A program made the position numbers and the translations under genes. Positions 38,156 to 46,680 of a stretch of DNA of 64,000 nt are shown one piece after another (the stretch's first letter is position 1; the number at the start of each line of letters is the position of its first letter). The notes beneath the pieces were generated by a model. The model was given only the letters and a program-made list of their open reading frames with translations. It ran no database searches and was not told where the DNA came from. The stretch is from Chitinophagaceae bacterium (GTDB lineage Bacteria; Bacteroidota; Bacteroidia; Chitinophagales; JADJOU01). The stretch covers positions 3,553 to 67,552 of the forward strand of contig JAFEIJ010000015.1 of NCBI GenBank assembly GCA_017495115.1, given 5' to 3'.

Positions 38156-38445
38156 GAATTTAAATCCATCGTTTTATTTTTTTGTTTAATAGCAATGATA
38201 AGAAAATTTATTGATTTTTTTTTGGATATTTTTATTTCCATCTATTCTCAGGCTGTGGGTTGCATAGACTTAATAAGGTAAAATGAATACGAATGGTTCG
38301 AAGCACTAATTATCAAAGATAAATATATTAAAAATACGAAATAATGGAATATAGCTATACCCTATGTAAATACTCTAAAAATGTTAATTATTTATAAAAA
38401 TTTTAATATTTGTAAAAATTATTTTATAATTGCATATATTAACGA

Positions 38446-38454
38446 GTTAGCGGT
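38446..38454 (+). repeat. GTTAGCGGT half-site, exact reverse complement of the ACCGCTAAC start of elements A and C
   Basis: 67 nt upstream of the GmrSD-like ATG. It pairs conceptually with 40361-40369. Confidence 0.5.
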
Positions 38455-38521
38455 CATTTTAGGAGAACCACACAAATCCAACAAACGACAAGTCTACAAA
38501 AAACAAAAGACAGTAAAAAAT

Positions 38522-40351
38522 ATGGCAAAAAACATTGAACCAACTCTGAAATTAATAAGCAAATTCCTTAAACTCGACAAATCCGAAAACTTTGTAATTC
38601 CTGAATATCAGCGTGGTTACTCTTGGGACATAGCTCAATGTGATAAATTATGGCAAGATATTGAAGCGTTTATTGCTTCTAACGCAAGCGATCCGTATTT
38701 TTTCGGTACAATCATTGTAGATTGTTCAGAAACTCACAAATTCAGCTTAATTGACGGACAACAACGCACAACGACTTTTTTGTTATTACTTAAAGCTTTG
38801 TTAATACAATTAAATGAAGCGATTCCAAAAGTTTCTGACGATGAGGAATCAGAAGCACTTAAAGCAGGACTAAAAGCCAACAGAAATAAAATTATGGCGA
38901 TTTTGTATAAAGCAGAAGATGAAGACATTCCTTCAATGCTAAAAGATTATGCTAAAACGCAAAACATTTTGATAATAGAAAATAAATCAATAAACGAATT
39001 ATTTCCAAATGAAGTAAAAACAATTATTGAAGCCGCAGACTTCATTTCATCTGAACAGAACGTCTATAAAATTCCACGAAAACAAAAAGACAATAAATAC
39101 ACAAATCACTTTCGCAACTTCAAATATTTTTTTAGCAAATTAGGCGAAAAGCCAGAATCTCAACTAAACCAATTTGCGAAAATATTTTTGGAGAAATGCC
39201 AAGTTATTGAAATTCGCAGTTGGCAAATTGAGCAAGCGATTACTATGTTTAATTCGCTAAACTCTACTGGTATGCCACTTTCTGATGCCGACATAATTTC
39301 TGCACAACTATACTCAAATGCTGGGGATGACAAAAAGGTGTTTAATGACCAATGGGAAAGTATCAATAAATTAGCAAATGAACTAAGTAACCGAAAAATC
39401 ATAGATATTGATGCTGTTTTGCAACAATTTATGTATATCAACCGTGCCATTAACAAGGAATATATAAGTATAAACAAAGAAGGAAATGAATCAGTTGATG
39501 TAACAACACCAGGTTTAAGAAGATATTATACTGACATTAAAAAAGAATTATTGAATGAACCATTGATGTTGTGTAATGACTTAGCTAAAATCACAACTAT
39601 TTGGAACAACATTAAAGATTATCCGACCGTAAAATTGCTTTTAAAATGTAACGAAAATGCTAAGTTATTTTTGTCAGCATATTTACATCGTTACGAAATC
39701 ACAGAAATCACAGAAGAAATTATTTTAGACTTGTGTGAGTGTTTACTAAGATTATTTACAATTTTAGAATTGAGTGATGCTGGTTATTCAAGTTCTAAAT
39801 TTAAGACGTTTTTGTTTGGTGAGAACATTAAATTAGTTGACAAAAATGTTTCAATTGACACTATCAAAAATAATTTCAATGAACATATTTCAAACAATTG
39901 GAAAGAAGACACAATTTCAGATGCAATTATTGAATATGATAAAAATTTACTTGTTTTTATTAACGAATATCTTTACTCTAAAACCAAAGGAACAAAGTTT
40001 GACTTTACAGAAAATGTAAACATTGAACATATAATGCCTTCAAGTGGTCGCAATATAACGACAATACAACAAGACGCAAATATTGCTACCAAAGAAGAGT
40101 TTAATAGTGTAGTAAACAAACTTGGAAACAAAATATTACTTGAAGAAGACATAAATAAGTCAATTGGACGAGAATGGTTCAAGACAAAAAAGCAAAATTC
40201 AATTGATAACAAATCTGGTTTCAAGGATAGTAAATATAGTATTGCTTTGGCATTAACATCATATCCAAAAGAAACTTGGACAAAAGACGATATTGACACT
40301 GCAACATTAAAAGCTACAGAACGAATAGTGGAATTTATATTTAACAAATAG
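38522..40351 (+). CDS. GmrSD-like DUF262 / DUF1524 domain protein (putative modification-dependent or NTP-dependent nuclease)
   Basis: N-terminal FVIPEYQRGYSW and IDGQQRTTT (DUF262, ParB-like NTPase). C-terminal NIEHIMP...NKLGNKILLEEDINKS (DUF1524 His-Me finger). ATG 38522 (MAKNIEP) is preferred to the ORF-track start 38381, whose extension is low-complexity. Confidence 0.8.
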   Translation: MAKNIEPTLKLISKFLKLDKSENFVIPEYQRGYSWDIAQCDKLWQDIEAFIASNASDPYFFGTIIVDCSETHKFSLIDGQQRTTTFLLLLKALLIQLNEAIPKVSDDEESEALKAGLKANRNKIMAILYKAEDEDIPSMLKDYAKTQNILIIENKSINELFPNEVKTIIEAADFISSEQNVYKIPRKQKDNKYTNHFRNFKYFFSKLGEKPESQLNQFAKIFLEKCQVIEIRSWQIEQAITMFNSLNSTGMPLSDADIISAQLYSNAGDDKKVFNDQWESINKLANELSNRKIIDIDAVLQQFMYINRAINKEYISINKEGNESVDVTTPGLRRYYTDIKKELLNEPLMLCNDLAKITTIWNNIKDYPTVKLLLKCNENAKLFLSAYLHRYEITEITEEIILDLCECLLRLFTILELSDAGYSSSKFKTFLFGENIKLVDKNVSIDTIKNNFNEHISNNWKEDTISDAIIEYDKNLLVFINEYLYSKTKGTKFDFTENVNIEHIMPSSGRNITTIQQDANIATKEEFNSVVNKLGNKILLEEDINKSIGREWFKTKKQNSIDNKSGFKDSKYSIALALTSYPKETWTKDDIDTATLKATERIVEFIFNK

Positions 40352-40460
40352 AAACACCGAACCGCTAACAGCAGTTTGGCATAATGGCGGGTTCAGTGCT
40401 AAATTGAAAGTAAGTGCTTCTAAATCCGCCACTTCTCCAAGCTGCAAAACGGTTGGCGGT
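40352..40460 (+). repeat. element A: 109-nt GC-rich imperfect palindrome (attC-like) after the GmrSD-like gene
   Basis: Three stem segments read by hand: ACCGCTAAC (40361-69) / GTTGGCGGT (40452-60); GCAGTTTGG (40371-79) / CCAAGCTGC (40437-45); TGGCGG (40385-90) / CCGCCA (40426-31). There is a 6-nt one-sided bulge AAAACG. It starts 1 nt after the stop codon. Confidence 0.75.
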
Positions 40461-40491
40461 AATGCTAAATAACATTGTGTAAAAATAAACT

Positions 40492-42009
40492 ATGGCAAAA
40501 AAGAAAAGCAGGATTAGACAAACTAGAACAAGTTTTCAGAAAGTTTTCGATAATTATCCTGATATGATACGACCATTTTCTTGGTCAGATAGATTGCCTG
40601 AATTTTTACATATATCTATTGCTCTAATAGATAATGACTATGAGGTTGTTAAGGAAGATTTTCATAAGATTGCAGACCTAGTAAATGGGAAATTTCATTA
40701 CGATAGAAAGTTTCATTTTAATCTTTCACATACTTTAAAATTAATTGTAGAAGATAATAGCATTCTAGACGAAATATTAAAAACATCATTTAAAACTGCA
40801 TTTCAACAAATAATTTTATTCTATAATAATTTGTTTCGTGATTTATTAAATTTAAAGGTGAATATTAATAGTGAGCCAGATCGTCGGAATATTTTTTTAG
40901 GATATAAATCAATACTAAATGGTAGATCTGATACATCAATATTATGCAAATACATGATGTTGCAATATACACAAACTGGTAATCCAGATCCATTTAATTT
41001 ATTCAACTGGGATACCACAGAAATCATACTTAACAAATTGAATGTTTCCAAAGTTATGTCTGCTTTTTCTCCATCTATTGGACTTTCAGAATATTTAGAT
41101 TTAGAACTTTGTGAAAACATATGGTTATATAATTATTACCTCTCTCCTCCTATGCCAAAACCTGATGATACTACGATTGAAGAACTACATTATAAAGAAT
41201 TAAAAATGAAGGAATTCACAGATAATTTTATTGATTTATTTGCGGAAATAAAAAAAATTAATCTTTTAGAATTTTATACCCCTTTTATAGCAGAAGTCAA
41301 TATGGGATTCATCGCTAGGATAGGCAATTTAACTATAGATACTGTCGACCTAGTAAAAATTCATAAAGGAGAAATTGCAGAAATGGTATTTAGAGTAACA
41401 TTAGAAACATTTATTGTTGGTTCATGGTTATTAACAAAACAGGACATAGAATTACATAAAAGATTTAGAGATTTTAGTACTGGGAGACAACGATTTTTTG
41501 GTGAGCAAGTTCTTCAAAAAGCGACAAGTGATAGAATGAAAAATGAGGCGAAAAGTATTATTGATGATGCTATAGAAGATTCTGGCAGAAGACACATTGA
41601 CGTTGCTACTGAGAAAGGAGATGTTTTTGACATAAATATAATGCAAATGTCCAACGAAGTATGGGGTGAAGAAAATATCTATTATTTTTTATACAAAAGG
41701 TCATCAGAAGTTACACATGGTCGATGGGAAATAATCGCAAAATATCATTTAGCAAAAAGCTACAATCCAACACACAATGGATTATATTTTTACAATGAAA
41801 ATCCTAACCGATTTGCTGGACTAATTCCAGCGTTCGGAAGTCTTATTTTAGCTACTGATTTTTTGATTAGAATAATTAATGATATCAATGACGAAAGATA
41901 TAATGAACTTACTGAAAAATTAAATAACTATTATTATAGATTATATGAGCAATATATGGTTTACTATAATGATTATGTATTAAACGATAATAAAAATAAA
42001 GCAGAATAA
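40492..42009 (+). CDS. hypothetical protein, family unknown; C-terminal half HEPN-like (DUF5677/AbiV-like?)
   Basis: 505-aa ORF with a clean ATG and no overlap. The only motifs I can point to are FRVTLE (R301..E305) and YKRSSEVTH (R403-x5-H409), which together resemble the helix-1 R..E and Rx4-6H signatures of HEPN-type Abi proteins. Nothing is recognised in the N-terminal 250 aa. Confidence 0.6.
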   Translation: MAKKKSRIRQTRTSFQKVFDNYPDMIRPFSWSDRLPEFLHISIALIDNDYEVVKEDFHKIADLVNGKFHYDRKFHFNLSHTLKLIVEDNSILDEILKTSFKTAFQQIILFYNNLFRDLLNLKVNINSEPDRRNIFLGYKSILNGRSDTSILCKYMMLQYTQTGNPDPFNLFNWDTTEIILNKLNVSKVMSAFSPSIGLSEYLDLELCENIWLYNYYLSPPMPKPDDTTIEELHYKELKMKEFTDNFIDLFAEIKKINLLEFYTPFIAEVNMGFIARIGNLTIDTVDLVKIHKGEIAEMVFRVTLETFIVGSWLLTKQDIELHKRFRDFSTGRQRFFGEQVLQKATSDRMKNEAKSIIDDAIEDSGRRHIDVATEKGDVFDINIMQMSNEVWGEENIYYFLYKRSSEVTHGRWEIIAKYHLAKSYNPTHNGLYFYNENPNRFAGLIPAFGSLILATDFLIRIINDINDERYNELTEKLNNYYYRLYEQYMVYYNDYVLNDNKNKAE

Positions 42010-42010
42010 A

Positions 42011-42180
42011 AGCACTAAAGCACTACCTCCAACACAGGTTTTGCAAGATTGCGACTTCTGGACTTAATTTGAAGTTGGTTTTGTATCTTTGAATTCAGTG
42101 TTTAACCGAAAGGTTCGGTTTCATTAGTCCGCAACCTCGCAAAGCCTGGGGACGTATAGCGAACCGCAGAAACCGACCGA
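42011..42180 (+). repeat. element B: divergent member of the same family after the 505-aa gene
   Basis: It shares ..CCAACAcaGGTTTTGCAAgA...CTTAATTtGAAG with elements A and C. Segmented stem 42035-42064 / 42126-42148 (CAGG/CCTG, TTTTGC/GCAAAG, TTGC/GCAA, GGACT/AGTCC). Inner perfect hairpin AACCGAA-AGG-TTCGGTT (42104-42120). Confidence 0.6.
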
Positions 42181-42247: not shown

Positions 42248-44404
42248 ATGAATTTAATAGATACGGGAATAGAAAAAGGACTAATTTGTTTTGACGAAGA
42301 CAAGAACTTTATCACTTACATACACCAAAATAAGAAAAGGAATTACAACAATCCCGAAGAAAAAGTACAAGCTGAAACTTTTTTGACTTTGGTGCTTATT
42401 TACGGCTACCCTGTAAACAGAATTAAACAATTTCTTTCTGTTCAAATGGGTTCAGAAACGAAAGAAGCCGACATTGCAGTTTATTCAGACGATGATTGCC
42501 ACGACACTTATATTTTAGTAGAGTGCAAAAAAGAAGATTTAACCGACCAACAATTTAACATAGCTGTTGACCAAGCATACAGTTATGCAGTTGCAGAAGG
42601 TGCAAAATATGTTTGGACAACTTCACGAATTAAAAACCAGTATTACGAAGTACCCGACAAGAAGCCAAAAAGCAGAATTGAAATTCCAGATATTCCACAA
42701 TTTGGAATTGACAAATTGGCGAAATACAAATATGTAAAAGGCGGTATTTCTCAAACTGACACAGATGCAAAACCAACCAATATTGTAAGTGAACCCGACC
42801 CAAATGTAACGCAGAAATTTTTTGAGTTGCAAGTGGTTAGCGAAAGCGAACTAACAAAAATATTTATCCAATCACACCAAGCACTTTGGGGCGGTGGTCA
42901 ACGAAACCCAAGTGTTGCATTTGACGAATTAGATAAACTCATTTTTTGTAAAATTTGGGATGAAAAACACCCAAGAAAAAACGGAGAACCCTATGATTTT
43001 CAAATTTTTAGAGACGAAGACCCCGAAGATTTATTAGACAGAGTAAAGAAAATTTATGCAGTTGGCGAAAAAGAAGCACCCGAAGTTTTCAAAGACGGTA
43101 TTACACTTACAGCACAAGAAACGCTGACGATTGTAAAATATTTTCAACGGATAAACCTTAATAAAACTGACCTTGACAGCAAAGGAAAAGCCTTTGAAAC
43201 CTTTATGGGCAGTTATTTTCGTGGCGACTTTGGACAATATTTCACACCAAGACCAATCGTAAAATTTATAGTTGACAGTTTGCCCATTACCCACAAAGCA
43301 AGGGTTTTAGATACCAGTTGTGGTAGCGGTGGTTTTTTGCTTTACGCATTAGACAAAGTAAGAGAGCAAGCCAACGAATTTTACGATATTAAAACCGAAC
43401 CAGTGGAGCATAAAGCACATTGGCATAACTTTGCCGAAAAAAATCTTTTTGGCATTGAAATAAACGACCAAATAGCCCGAACTGCCAAAATGAATATGAT
43501 TATTCACGATGACGGACACACCAATGTAATTGCTTCTGATGGACTTTTGAGTGATGTAGAAATGCAAGTAAAATCGGGTAACAAAGAATTTAAGTACAAT
43601 TCGTTTGACTACATAATTACCAATCCACCTTTTGGCAGTAGCATAAAACAAACCGAAAAAGCCTATTTGCACCAATACAATTTGGGTAAAAAAGACGAAG
43701 ATTGGTTGGCTGTAAAAGCACTTAAAGAAACTACAAGAGATAGCCAAAGTACCGAAGTATTATTTTTGGAGCAATGTCATAAGTTTTTGGTAGAGTTTGG
43801 AATGATGGCTGTGGTAATACCTGACGGAATTTTAACTAATAGCAGTTTGCAATATGTACGAGACAATTTGGAAGAAATGTACCGTATTGTAGCCGTTGTA
43901 TCTATGCCACAAACAGCCTTTAGTGCCACAGGTGCAGGTGTAAAAAGTTCGGTTTTGTTTTTGCGTAAACATAAAACCAAACAAACCGAAAAAATAAGCA
44001 ACCAAAAAGCCAAACTAAAATTAGACGTAAAAACCGACAATAAATATATTGCAACGGTAGAAAAATGGGATAAGGAAAAAGCACAAGCCATAAAAAAATT
44101 GGAAGACGAAGCCAAAACCAAAAACCCAAAGGCAACAAAAAAAGAAATTACAGAAATGATACAAGCCGACAAGTCGGCTGTACAATCTGCATTTACCGAC
44201 AAAGTAAATTTGTTTAAAGAAGAACTAACCGAAAAGTATTTTCTTGCCAAGCAAACTGCCCTTGACGATTACCCTATATTTATGGCAATAGCCGAAGATA
44301 TTGGTTACGATGCCACAGGTAGAAACACCAATAATAATGAACTAATAGAAATAGGTAAAGAACTACAAAAGTTTATTGCTCATATAAACAAGACCGAAAA
44401 GTAA
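42248..44404 (+). CDS. hsdM: N6-adenine DNA methyltransferase (HsdM/gamma-class) with an N-terminal HSDR_N-like PD-(D/E)xK domain
   Basis: Motif I is LDTSCGSGGFL and motif IV is ITNPPFGS. The N-terminal ~135 aa carry EAD(75)IAVY...YILVE(92)CK(94), a PD-(D/E)xK-like pattern as in the type I R-protein N-terminal domain. A Lys-rich coiled-coil insert lies near the C-terminus. It ends 1 nt before hsdS. Confidence 0.85.
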   Translation: MNLIDTGIEKGLICFDEDKNFITYIHQNKKRNYNNPEEKVQAETFLTLVLIYGYPVNRIKQFLSVQMGSETKEADIAVYSDDDCHDTYILVECKKEDLTDQQFNIAVDQAYSYAVAEGAKYVWTTSRIKNQYYEVPDKKPKSRIEIPDIPQFGIDKLAKYKYVKGGISQTDTDAKPTNIVSEPDPNVTQKFFELQVVSESELTKIFIQSHQALWGGGQRNPSVAFDELDKLIFCKIWDEKHPRKNGEPYDFQIFRDEDPEDLLDRVKKIYAVGEKEAPEVFKDGITLTAQETLTIVKYFQRINLNKTDLDSKGKAFETFMGSYFRGDFGQYFTPRPIVKFIVDSLPITHKARVLDTSCGSGGFLLYALDKVREQANEFYDIKTEPVEHKAHWHNFAEKNLFGIEINDQIARTAKMNMIIHDDGHTNVIASDGLLSDVEMQVKSGNKEFKYNSFDYIITNPPFGSSIKQTEKAYLHQYNLGKKDEDWLAVKALKETTRDSQSTEVLFLEQCHKFLVEFGMMAVVIPDGILTNSSLQYVRDNLEEMYRIVAVVSMPQTAFSATGAGVKSSVLFLRKHKTKQTEKISNQKAKLKLDVKTDNKYIATVEKWDKEKAQAIKKLEDEAKTKNPKATKKEITEMIQADKSAVQSAFTDKVNLFKEELTEKYFLAKQTALDDYPIFMAIAEDIGYDATGRNTNNNELIEIGKELQKFIAHINKTEK

Positions 44405-44405
44405 T

Positions 44406-45851
44406 ATGAGCAGTTACACAATTTCTAACCCAGCACTCAACCCAAAACGAGTTTTTATTTTGCAAAAAAGCGAATTGGAAAAACGATGGGACTCATACTT
44501 TTATTTGCCACAATTCAAAATCTTAGAAGATAAATTAAAGAAAAAAAATGTAAAGTGTATTTCACAAATAGCTGAAAGAGTGTTTTCAGGTTCTACCCCT
44601 TTAAGTAAAGGAGATTCATATACTGAAGACAAGATAAATGGTATACCGTTTGTAAGAAGTGGCGACTTTACAATTGAAGGCTCAATTGATTTTAATAATT
44701 TAGTATATTTAAAATCAGAAATTCATACAACACAATTAAAATCTTCTCAACTAAAAGAAAATGATTTACTTTTTGCAATTGTTGGTGCTACAATTGGGAA
44801 AGTAGGAGTTTATAAAAGTGATAGACCTGCAAATATCAATCAAGCAATTTGTGCAGTAAGAATAAAATCAAATTATAATATTGATTATCTAAACGCATAC
44901 TTTCAAACGAAATTAGGTCAAAGTCTAATTGACAGAATTAAAAGACCAGTAGCAAGAGCAAATGTAAATCTTGACGAAATTTCCACATTACCTATAATTT
45001 TACCAGATGAGGTTATACAGCAAAAAGTAATTTCTATATTCAATAGTTCATTATCCCAAAAACAAACCAACGAAGCCGAAGCCGAAAAACTATTGGCAAG
45101 TATTGATGATTATTTATTAGGCGAGTTGGGTATTACTTTGCCGACACCACCCGAAAATACGTTGAAGAGTAGGATGTTTATTGCAAACAGTAAAGACATT
45201 TTGGGAAGTAGATTTGACCCACATTTTAATAAAACTTTCTACAATGAAGTTTTCAATTCCTTTTCAAAAAGCAAATTCAAGGTTTTAAAAATTAAAGATG
45301 TTTTAGAAAACATCAAAACAGGAACAACACCAAATCAAAAGTTAGAACCTTATGCAGACGAAAACGGAATTGTATTTTTAAGAAACACTAATCTTAAAAA
45401 ATACAACATTGATTTATCCGACACAAAATTTATAAAAACTGAGTTAGCAAAAGAATTGACATATTCAGTAAAAGACGAAGTAATTATGTGTATTGCAGGA
45501 ACAGTCGGACTTTCAGCAGTAAATAAAATAGATAAGCCATTTTCAATCAATCAAAATGTTTCGGCATTAAAGTTTTTTGACAATCATATAAACCCTGACT
45601 TCGCTTCATATTGGTTTAATACGGATATTTTTCTAGAACTAACAAAAAGGGCTTGTTCTGTGGCGACAATTTTTTATTTAAATAACGACAATTTAAAACT
45701 TTTACCAATCCCTGTTCCACCCATTAACAAACAAAAAGAAATAGCCGAGCATATAACCAATATAAGAAACCAAGCCCAAGCACTAAAAGACCAAACCAAA
45801 GACTTGCTCAAAAAAGCTAGTGAAGAAATAGAAGAAATATTACTAGACTAA
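44406..45851 (+). CDS. hsdS: restriction-modification specificity subunit (HsdS, two target-recognition domains)
   Basis: 481 aa. Duplicated TRD architecture with two conserved helical spacers (NEAEAEKLLASIDDYLLGELGI and IRNQAQALKDQTKDLLKKASEEIEEILL). Translationally coupled to the methyltransferase. Confidence 0.85.
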   Translation: MSSYTISNPALNPKRVFILQKSELEKRWDSYFYLPQFKILEDKLKKKNVKCISQIAERVFSGSTPLSKGDSYTEDKINGIPFVRSGDFTIEGSIDFNNLVYLKSEIHTTQLKSSQLKENDLLFAIVGATIGKVGVYKSDRPANINQAICAVRIKSNYNIDYLNAYFQTKLGQSLIDRIKRPVARANVNLDEISTLPIILPDEVIQQKVISIFNSSLSQKQTNEAEAEKLLASIDDYLLGELGITLPTPPENTLKSRMFIANSKDILGSRFDPHFNKTFYNEVFNSFSKSKFKVLKIKDVLENIKTGTTPNQKLEPYADENGIVFLRNTNLKKYNIDLSDTKFIKTELAKELTYSVKDEVIMCIAGTVGLSAVNKIDKPFSINQNVSALKFFDNHINPDFASYWFNTDIFLELTKRACSVATIFYLNNDNLKLLPIPVPPINKQKEIAEHITNIRNQAQALKDQTKDLLKKASEEIEEILLD

Positions 45852-45873: not shown

Positions 45874-46014
45874 AAACACCGAACCGCTAACAGCCGTTTT
45901 GCAAAAGCTGGGGTTTAGTGCTTAATTGAAGCTTTGTGCTTCGAATCAAGTTCAGTGCTGGCAGACAGTTTTGTGCTTCGAAAACCGCTTCTTCGCCAAG
46001 CGCCGAAACGTTAT
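45874..46014 (+). repeat. element C: ~140-nt member of the same family after hsdS
   Basis: Its first 21 nt, AAACACCGAACCGCTAACAGC (45874-45894), are identical to 40352-40372. The central unit GTTyAGTGCT..TTTGTGCTTCGAA is duplicated (TTTGTGCTTCGAA at 45933-45945 and 45970-45982). It ends ...CCGAAACGTTAT. Confidence 0.75.
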
Positions 46015-46022
46015 TTGCTCTA

Positions 46023-46057
46023 CTCGTCCTCGTCTTAGCGAAGTGATGACGAGGATG
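46023..46057 (+). repeat. GC-rich hairpin element D2 (inverted copy of D1)
   Basis: CTCGTCCTCGTCTTAGCGAAGTGATGACGAGGATG, with stem TCCTCGTC/GACGAGGA. It directly abuts element C. Confidence 0.7.
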
Positions 46058-46139
46058 CATAAGTGTGAAATGAAATTTAAAGGATTAAATTAAAAGTTTT
46101 TTATTTCATAAACATATTTATTGCATTTTCAAAAACTTA

Positions 46140-46541
46140 CTATTTCTTTTTCTTCAGTTGATTCCATCTTAAGCTAACGCCTACTCCAATATTCCATTGA
46201 CCATTTTGTGTTGCCGTTTTTGGGTTATAATACAAAGGAATTTGAAATGCTACGGCACGATACGAATAGGTGAGTCCAATGCCTAAAGTTGGCGTTACAA
46301 AAGCATTTTTTGTAGTTCCTTGATCTTCTTTAAAACGAAGTGAAGGCAACATACTTAACATTACTTTGGAGTCATTTAAATTAGCGGTTATGCTTGGTCC
46401 TGCAAAATTTAAATATCCACCTTGATTCACATAACCAACAACTAAAACACCATCGAAGGGTAATAAATTGATTTTAGTATCTTGAGCATATAGCCAAGAA
46501 CTAACTATTAATAGAAAAACGGTAAAATATTGTTTTTTCAT
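46140..46541 (-). CDS. small secreted / outer-membrane beta-strand protein (hypothetical)
   Basis: Signal peptide MKKQYFTVFLLIVSSWLYAQ. Alternating hydrophobic pattern. A CAAAAATA box lies 14 nt upstream. Confidence 0.45.
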   Translation of the reverse strand: MKKQYFTVFLLIVSSWLYAQDTKINLLPFDGVLVVGYVNQGGYLNFAGPSITANLNDSKVMLSMLPSLRFKEDQGTTKNAFVTPTLGIGLTYSYRAVAFQIPLYYNPKTATQNGQWNIGVGVSLRWNQLKKKK

Positions 46542-46555
46542 TTTTAAATTTTCAT

Positions 46556-46563
46556 CAAAAATA
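46556..46563 (-). promoter_or_regulatory. -7 box TATTTTTG (small OMP gene)
   Basis: CAAAAATA on the plus strand. 14 nt upstream of ATG 46541. Confidence 0.5.
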
Positions 46564-46654
46564 ATTCGTTTTTACAAATAAACTAAAATTTGTTAATTTT
46601 TTGATTAAAAATTTGCGTTATCTACATTAACATATTTAATAACAAAAAAAATAA

Positions 46655-46662
46655 TACCTTTG
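46655..46662 (+). promoter_or_regulatory. -7 box TACCTTTG (serS)
   Basis: 18 nt before ATG 46681. Confidence 0.55.
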
Positions 46663-46680
46663 CATAAATAAACATATAAA

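Follow-up and report, generated by a model that had tools for sequence, protein, structure and literature searches.

What is the protein encoded between two restriction-type units in a 64,000-nucleotide (nt) stretch of the Chitinophagaceae bacterium contig JAFEIJ010000015.1 (the window), how does its gene move, and does it serve in defence? The open reading frame (ORF) at 40492..42009 of the + strand starts with ATG and codes a protein of 505 amino acids (aa). An earlier sequence-only reading of this DNA delimited the ORF correctly and regarded its product as an orphan with a candidate HEPN motif, lying in a defence context and possibly travelling with a neighbouring methyltransferase-specificity subunit (MTase-S) pair. 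The gene is shown here to be the single gene of an integron-type cassette of ~1.7 kb (40453-42154) that moves as its own unit. The explanation we favour, with somewhat more belief than doubt, is that its product is a stand-alone, divergent member of the DitA/DUF5677 group and most likely a self-contained phage defence protein. From the earlier interpretation the likeness to DUF5677 and the defence context are retained, whereas the orphan status, the HEPN/AbiV assignment and the joint movement with the MTase-S pair are abandoned.

A DUF5677 protein and its relation to DitA

A search covering 5.8 billion proteins yielded 79 homologues of the 505-aa protein, 34-84% identical over the full length and nearly all of ~500 aa, which establishes that the gene is real. 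The named ones all belong to Bacteroidota, including Flavobacterium bomense, Zobellia, Gramella/Christiangramia and Cyclobacteriaceae. Residues 271-421 (41302..41754, + strand) align with positions 5-161 of the 166 positions of the Pfam model DUF5677 (PF18928), at E 3.6e-12 and 47.1 bits, the gathering cut-off being 27.1, and the protein keeps the conserved residues of this family, which has no assigned function. The match bears out the earlier guess of a DUF5677-like protein and, together with the full-length remote homology to DitA described below, it removes the label of a protein assignable to no family. The Pfam model covers residues 271-421 only. The N-terminal half found no match in a Pfam search, but the earlier remark that the first ~250 aa hold no motif does not stand: sequence conservation extends to this half, which is homologous to the corresponding half of DitA-type proteins.

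An exhaustive profile search extended the family to 588 representative clusters at E <= 0.001, most of them proteins of ~500-550 aa that match profile positions ~200-425 only. The close family and the wider family of remote relatives are represented below by two alignments, A1 and A2, respectively. A second large protein search, started from A2, brought up only 20 close DUF5677 proteins and added no further names. Relatives of the 505-aa protein were not found in phage and plasmid collections (tblastn) or in a scan of IMG/VR, and the literature on DUF5677, PF18928 and DitA yielded no mechanistic work.

DitA is the larger protein of Aditi, a two-gene anti-phage system (DitA and DitB) that was verified as defence by Millman et al. 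(2022, preprint supplementary tables). HHpred gave no match for either protein in that study; Aditi is verified but has no known mechanism and no recognisable domains. The PADLOC model of DitA (PDLC03826) is matched by 94 of 100 remote relatives from A2 (best E 3.2e-40). The A2 profile in turn matches the verified DitA of Saccharibacillus kuerlensis at 122 bits across the whole available sequence, which comprises the first 400 residues as given in the tables of Millman et al. (2022). Alignment of A1 with A2 by hhalign (probability 100%, E 2.7e-42) spans 462 columns and query residues 19-486, so that both halves of the protein are homologous to the wider family. Through this wider family the window protein displays profile-profile homology to DitA over its full length. 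The two are also similar in size (483-490 aa for DitA, 505 aa here), are both all-alpha and built of two parts, the C-terminal half containing the DUF5677 region, and have in common an RLPE motif close to the N-terminus and R-x3-E in the core of DUF5677.

The window gene differs from Aditi by the lack of a DitB partner, by the absence of a direct match to the DitA model and by its location on an integron-type cassette. Canonical Aditi loci are almost all found in Firmicutes (Millman et al. 2022, preprint tables), while the branch studied here belongs to Bacteroidota. No DitB relative was detected at E < 10 by phmmer with two DitB sequences (372 and 361 aa) among the ORFs of at least 60 aa in the window and in the loci of the homologues, and the cassette with the DitA-like gene contains one ORF only. 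That Bacteroidota have a large DitB-less branch of DitA-like proteins, mobile as a one-gene cassette, points to DitA as the core and possibly self-sufficient component.

The AlphaFold2 model of the 505-aa protein, obtained with the family alignment as input, is all-alpha with a mean predicted local distance difference test score (pLDDT) of 90.3; a model of the domain formed by residues 255-505 reaches 85.8. The N-terminal helical domain (residues ~1-255; 40492..41256, + strand) is conserved in A1 and aligns with the N-terminal half of DitA-like proteins. It carries a conserved basic peptide, RIRQTRTxWQKxFD, and a PExLHIS motif (E37, H40). The peptide lies within residues 1-23 (40492-40560), where the clade shows strong conservation of the pattern K-K-x-(G/S)-R-I-R-Q-T-R-T-x-(W/F)-Q-K-x-F-D and the pLDDT is low (47-73); it may be an interaction or autoinhibitory segment. 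At the other end of the DUF5677 region, DitA-like proteins feature a near-invariant C-x-N-P-L-H-R-x-H segment after H-G-x-W, possibly a metal site. The Bacteroidota clade reads S-Y-N-P-T-H-N-G at this place (residues 420-433, 41749-41790) and has lost the Cys and the last His of the segment.

An integron-type cassette in Bacteroidota

Complementarity between the R' core upstream of a gene and the R'' core downstream of it is a defining feature of integron cassettes. The gene for the 505-aa protein had been described as bracketed by two repeats, A and B. Structured elements are indeed present at ~40361-40460 and 42025-42162, and they are attC-like recombination sites. Site 1 (40361..40460, + strand) is located 3' of the upstream restriction enzyme gene, forms an imperfect hairpin (z -2.5) and is homologous to an attC of a Flavobacteriaceae metagenome-assembled genome (MAG; locus L007). 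Its R'' is ACCGCTAAC (40361-40369) and its R' is GTTGGCGGT (40452-40460), within which the DUF5677 cassette begins, between G40452 and T40453. Site 2 (42025..42162, + strand), 3' of the DUF5677 gene, folds into a long imperfect hairpin (z -2.8 for the + strand, -3.8 for the - strand) and is homologous to attC sites of an array of F. bomense (L020). It has the R'' ACCTCCAAC (42025-42033), which agrees with the reverse complement of the upstream R' in 8 of 9 bases, and a degenerate R', GTATAGCGA (42154-42162). The R' GTTGGCGGT stands 40 nt before the ATG and the R'' ACCTCCAAC 16 nt past the stop codon.

The same arrangement surrounds the homologous gene in seven other loci (L002, L005, L006, L007, L009, L015 and L020), in which the flanking R'/R'' pair is complementary at 9 of 9 positions and occupies positions equivalent to those of the window relative to the start and stop codons. 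Five of the seven have GTTAGCGGT as upstream core (36-93 nt before the ATG), and in four of these five the downstream core is ACCGCTAAC (9-126 nt past the stop codon). The boundary sequences GTT[AG]GCGGTAATGC and GCACTACCxCxAAC are kept across genomes whereas the flanking genes differ. The DitA-like gene is consequently a cassette in its own right.

That the same boundaries are found in seven other genomes with different neighbours shows also that the gene does not travel with the MTase-S pair, as had been proposed. The pair is composed of a methyltransferase with an N-terminal HSDR_N_2 nuclease-like domain (42248-44404, + strand) and a specificity (S) subunit (44406-45851, + strand), both recognised by Pfam and PADLOC models. 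A relative of the methyltransferase is found near a homologue of the DitA-like protein in only 1 of 23 loci, with 26% identity, and the M and S genes also occur apart from the DitA-like gene. An M protein at least 90% identical to that of the window is encoded next to an S gene in two loci (L031, L032) that have neither a DitA-like gene nor attC sites, and where the two genes adjoin a DUF433-DUF5615 pair. No shared partner emerged when the neighbour proteins of the window were compared by tblastn with the homologous loci. Clusters at 90% identity count 2 members for the DitA-like protein, 30 for SerS, 21 for GmrSD and 15 for M; the small number for the DitA-like protein fits a rare accessory cassette.

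The joint movement had been proposed on the basis of a 21-nt exact direct repeat. The repeat, AAACACCGAACCGCTAACAGC, is present as reported at 40352-40372 and 45874-45894, 5522 nt apart. The 64 kb contain no copy besides these two, where chance predicts 0, and the 21 nt open a longer repeat of 72 nt with 81% identity. The 21-nt repeat is the common 5' end of attC-like sites 1 and 3, two sites of one sequence type. Site 3 (45883..46018, + strand), 3' of the S gene, has the R'' ACCGCTAAC and the R' GTTATTTGC (46010-46018); its stem is decayed, folding no better than shuffled sequences (z +1.0 and +0.3). The 5.5-kb segment between the 21-nt repeats was considered as one mobile unit and rejected, the repeats being the shared 5' ends of two attC-like sites.

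Three attC-like units, coding GmrSD, the DitA-like protein and MTase plus S, are thus clustered in an insertion between mutS2 and serS. Neither a tyrosine-recombinase motif nor a tblastn match to an integrase was found within the 64-kb window, and a Pfam scan of its ORFs showed no integrase among the best 25 of 75 matched families. The lack of an integrase in the window makes this a cluster of attC sites lacking integron-integrases (CALIN).

Larger arrays are found around other homologues. Christiangramia lutea (L009) has at least 11 ORFs on the same strand, each separated from the next by a conserved imperfect palindrome of ~130 nt. The six bases after GTT at the upstream boundary are the reverse complement of the six before AAC at the downstream one in 9 of 9 successive cassettes, with agreement at 52 of 54 positions. 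This R'/R'' rule is followed by 8 of 8 cassettes in a Chitinophagaceae MAG contig (L015) and also along the arrays of F. bomense and the Flavobacteriaceae MAG. The four arrays (L009:5787-14185, L015:5169-14386, L020:9832-15135 and L007:11521-15188) consist of same-strand ORFs separated by palindromes of 100-205 nt and of mixed sequence types. The attC-like sites described here were assessed by folding, boundary comparison and a gapped stem score. No integrase was found in the four stretches. In a Gillisia MAG the DitA-like cassette (L005:8343-10003) directly follows the core gene prmA, with an R'-like core GTTAGCGGT and no recognisable attC before it, which suggests insertion at a secondary site.

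The survey with IntegronFinder 2.0 (2022) reported only In0 elements and one complete integron in Bacteroidota (PMC9024848). The structure described here is that of a textbook integron cassette in a phylum with almost no integrons in that survey. Compact defence systems were found to abound among integron cassettes (Darracq et al., preprint, 10.1101/2024.07.02.601686). The defence cassettes of sedentary chromosomal integrons described there are likewise compact single-gene units followed by an attC site, and R'/R'' complementarity and same-strand arrays are common to them and to the Bacteroidota loci. The differences lie in the Bacteroidota host and in the absence of an integrase from the window. 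With GmrSD, the DitA-like gene and the MTase-S pair, the Bacteroidota cassette pool gains defence genes.

Conserved residues and the probable role in defence

The sequence-only reading singled out two motifs in the C-terminal half. Both lie where it placed them: FRVTLE, with R301 (nt 41392-41394) and E305 (nt 41404-41406), and YKRSSEVTHGRW, with R403 (nt 41698-41700) and H409 (nt 41716-41718). R301 and E305 (41392..41406, + strand) lie on helix 293-316 as delimited by AlphaFold2, and the R403-x5-H409 string (41698..41718, + strand) includes S405 (nt 41704-41706). Residues were tallied in an alignment of 93 close and 111 remote relatives to the family profile. R301 is present in 109 of the 109 remote relatives that cover the position and in 92 of 93 close ones, position 305 is E or D without exception in remote relatives, and H409 is kept in 110/111 remote and 93/93 close relatives. 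R301 and H409 are hence each missing in one aligned family member only, and R301, E305 and H409 count as conserved, in favour of the sequence-only reading. S405 (104/111 remote relatives) and R276 (100/104) are similarly kept. The residues conserved family-wide are R276, R301, E/D305, S405, H409, G410 and W412, all of which are present in the window protein.

R403 behaves differently. It is Arg in 92 of 93 close relatives, whereas remote relatives have Pro in 81 cases, Arg in 16 and another residue in 14 (of 111). Within the close family both R403 and H409 are conserved, and H409 is so in the whole family, while R403 is lost in most remote relatives: its conservation is limited to the Bacteroidota clade, and that of H409 and S405 is family-wide. 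As R403 is mostly replaced by Pro, the family motif is [YF]-x-[PR]-x-S-x3-H-G-x-W and not Rx4-6H. The conservation map designates R276, R301, E/D305, S405 and H409 as the residues of interest, not R403.

The genomic setting points to defence. The upstream neighbour of the DitA-like gene codes a GmrSD-type (type IV) restriction enzyme (38381..40351, + strand; GmrSD_N 1e-35, GmrSD_C 1.5e-10) whose best PADLOC matches are HEC-06 models (5.6e-41). A GmrSD gene also adjoins the DitA-like gene of Zobellia (L019). Elsewhere homologues are adjoined by PD-T4-1 (L003 and L021), a Ppl-like protein (L011), an Mrr-like type IV enzyme (L002), Xre-RES (L020), PemK together with a STAND-like NTPase and integrases (L022), or a PIN protein (L023). 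In at least 9 of 24 loci, belonging to unrelated genomes, a known defence or toxin gene lies directly beside the homologue, and the defence context claimed for the gene is upheld in the sense that homologues are often beside such genes. A DitA-like gene of the wider family (P0228) is positioned between HmaB and HmaC of an Hma system (L024:1217-9370; also in L025), HmaB of L024 being a DUF1156 methylase fused to NADAR and HmaC a DUF499 ATPase. This position resembles that of the 'Hma-embedded candidates' of PADLOC and that of PrrC in the prr locus. The window gene is also found between two restriction-type units, but these are separate cassettes and not one operon.

Judged from these sequence data, a role of the DitA-like protein in phage defence or abortive infection is likely. 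In the mechanism that we propose the protein would act alone. The N-terminal helical domain (~1-255), which is more variable, would sense infection or keep the protein inactive, and the effector role would fall to the conserved helical DUF5677 domain at the C-terminus; this division of labour is suggested by the variability of the N-terminus, most remote relatives matching profile positions ~200-425 only. The effector would act through a polar site contributed by three helices (E268-G272-R276; E294, R301-E305; Y401-S405-H409). Along the three predicted helices these conserved polar residues recur at i, i+4, i+8, a spacing that suggests one shared candidate pocket in the model. With low confidence, this putative site might cleave or modify nucleic acid. 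If it were a nuclease, it would not have a canonical HEPN site, since the family-wide R301 and H409 are on different helices, ~100 residues apart.

Several observations weigh against a self-contained defence protein of the DitA type. The PADLOC model of DitA gave no hit to the window protein at E <= 0.1, the verified DitA is missed by the A1 profile when used on its own, and hhalign of A1 against that single sequence gave a probability of 0.5%; as the intermediate A2 profile is needed to bridge them, the relation is remote and transitive. Verified Aditi requires two genes (Millman et al. 2022), while DitB is absent here. The tables of that study mark the second Aditi locus, from B. simplex, with 'x', which we read as no protection, and that of S. 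kuerlensis with 'v'. Several homologues lie among ordinary genes (L023), and most neighbouring cassettes encode proteins of no known function. Of nine candidates, five protected Enterococcus faecalis from six phages, and a DUF5677 ORF of Bacillota was not one of the five (PMC12632615). Finally, Foldseek searches with the models gave no match that hints at a chemistry.

The alternative put forward by the sequence-only reading is that the C-terminal half is a HEPN domain in which R403-x5-H409 forms a metal-independent RNase site as in AbiV, RNA cleavage aborting the infection. The window protein has in common with HEPN RNases (AbiV, PDB 9bj5-9bj7; PF18728) a helical domain, here predicted as an all-alpha bundle, and the defence setting, and its Rx5H string is kept in the Bacteroidota clade (R in 92/93, H in 93/93). 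The Arg of this string is, however, unconserved in the wider family, where H409 is retained, and Rx4-6H matches are as frequent as expected by chance: the protein has two (R34-H40 and R403-H409) against a mean of 1.8 in residue shuffles, and the chance of an Arg at -5 to -7 of a given His is 14%. R34-x5-H40 was considered as a second HEPN motif and rejected, R34 being variable in the close family and position 40 being W about as often as H in the few remote relatives aligned there. HEPN and AbiV models of Pfam and PADLOC, PF18728 included, matched neither the protein nor 100 relatives; in Pfam only DUF5677 (PF18928) was found, at E <= 0.1 for the protein and at E <= 1 for the relatives. Searched against PDB sequences, the A1 and A2 profiles left HEPN/AbiV chains (including 9bj5-7) unmatched at E <= 10; A1 had no match, and the sole matches of A2, designed helical repeats, were taken as compositional and set aside.

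The fold likewise fails to support this alternative. The AlphaFold2 model is confident, yet a Foldseek comparison of the complete model with PDB and BFVD produced no hit under E 0.2 and listed no HEPN entry in the PDB top 50, and the domain model (255-505) had a best E of 0.74 against PDB. Its top 50 contains three unrelated HEPN entries (4nqf, 2hsb and AbiV 9bj5-7) at noise level (E 2.2-5.2, and 4.5-5.2 for AbiV; template modelling score 0.23-0.37; root mean square deviation 14-17 A), at most a faint hint. AbiV is a protein of 201 aa, against 505 aa here. The Rx4-6H motif is normally found at the start of a helix in HEPN structures, whereas R403-x5-H409 occupies the last turns of helix 396-409 in the model. 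Neither Aditi protein had an HHpred match (Millman et al. 2022). A HEPN assignment of the DUF5677 domain is not supported, and we consider an RNase of this kind improbable. More doubtful still is that the protein works only with a partner encoded elsewhere, either an unrecognised analogue of DitB or the neighbouring restriction enzymes, which it would guard as PrrC guards EcoprrI. The two-gene composition of verified Aditi, the DitA-like gene between HmaB and HmaC and the place of the window gene between GmrSD and the MTase-S pair speak for such a dependence; the single ORF of the cassette, neighbours that differ in every genome, the lack of a DitB-like ORF in the window or the loci and the occurrence of the MTase-S pair elsewhere without a DitA-like gene speak against it. 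Cargo without an immune function, such as a regulator, a scaffold or a stress-related enzyme, whose defence neighbours would reflect variable regions and arrays in general, is the least improbable of these alternatives but also unlikely. It would account for most of the adjacent cassettes coding unknown, non-defence proteins, for the negative result with the DUF5677 ORF in E. faecalis (PMC12632615) and for the missing hint of enzymatic chemistry in fold or family. It agrees poorly with the homology, over the whole length, to DitA as a component of a verified defence system, with the recurrence of known defence and toxin genes as immediate neighbours in unrelated genomes and with the relative embedded within an Hma system.

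A broader form of the favoured interpretation, that of a DitA-type defence protein on its own cassette, combines two propositions. DitA/DUF5677 would be a new all-alpha effector fold unrelated to HEPN, with an Arg and Ser/His site on different helices, working without DitB in this branch; and Flavobacteriia, Cytophagia and Chitinophagia would carry large active cassette arrays that shuffle single-gene defence modules and are largely missed by standard surveys. That both hold together is a tentative and rather doubtful proposition.

Neighbouring units in the window

The GmrSD-type gene is the first unit of the cluster, and no attC-like site is found upstream of it (38156-38380). The MTase and S genes (42248..45851) lie between attC sites 2 and 3; their matches to the NCBIfam models MAD2 and MAD5 are below the cut-offs. 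The HSDR_N_2 domain of the methyltransferase is PD-(D/E)xK-like and there is no separate R subunit; the MTase-S pair is possibly a restriction-modification unit complete in itself. Between site 3 and serS (46019-46680) no additional attC was seen. Site 3 is followed by a short GC-rich inverted repeat (~46023-46056) and then by a 133-aa ORF on the minus strand (46140-46541), without Pfam or NCBIfam match, whose N-terminus resembles a signal peptide.

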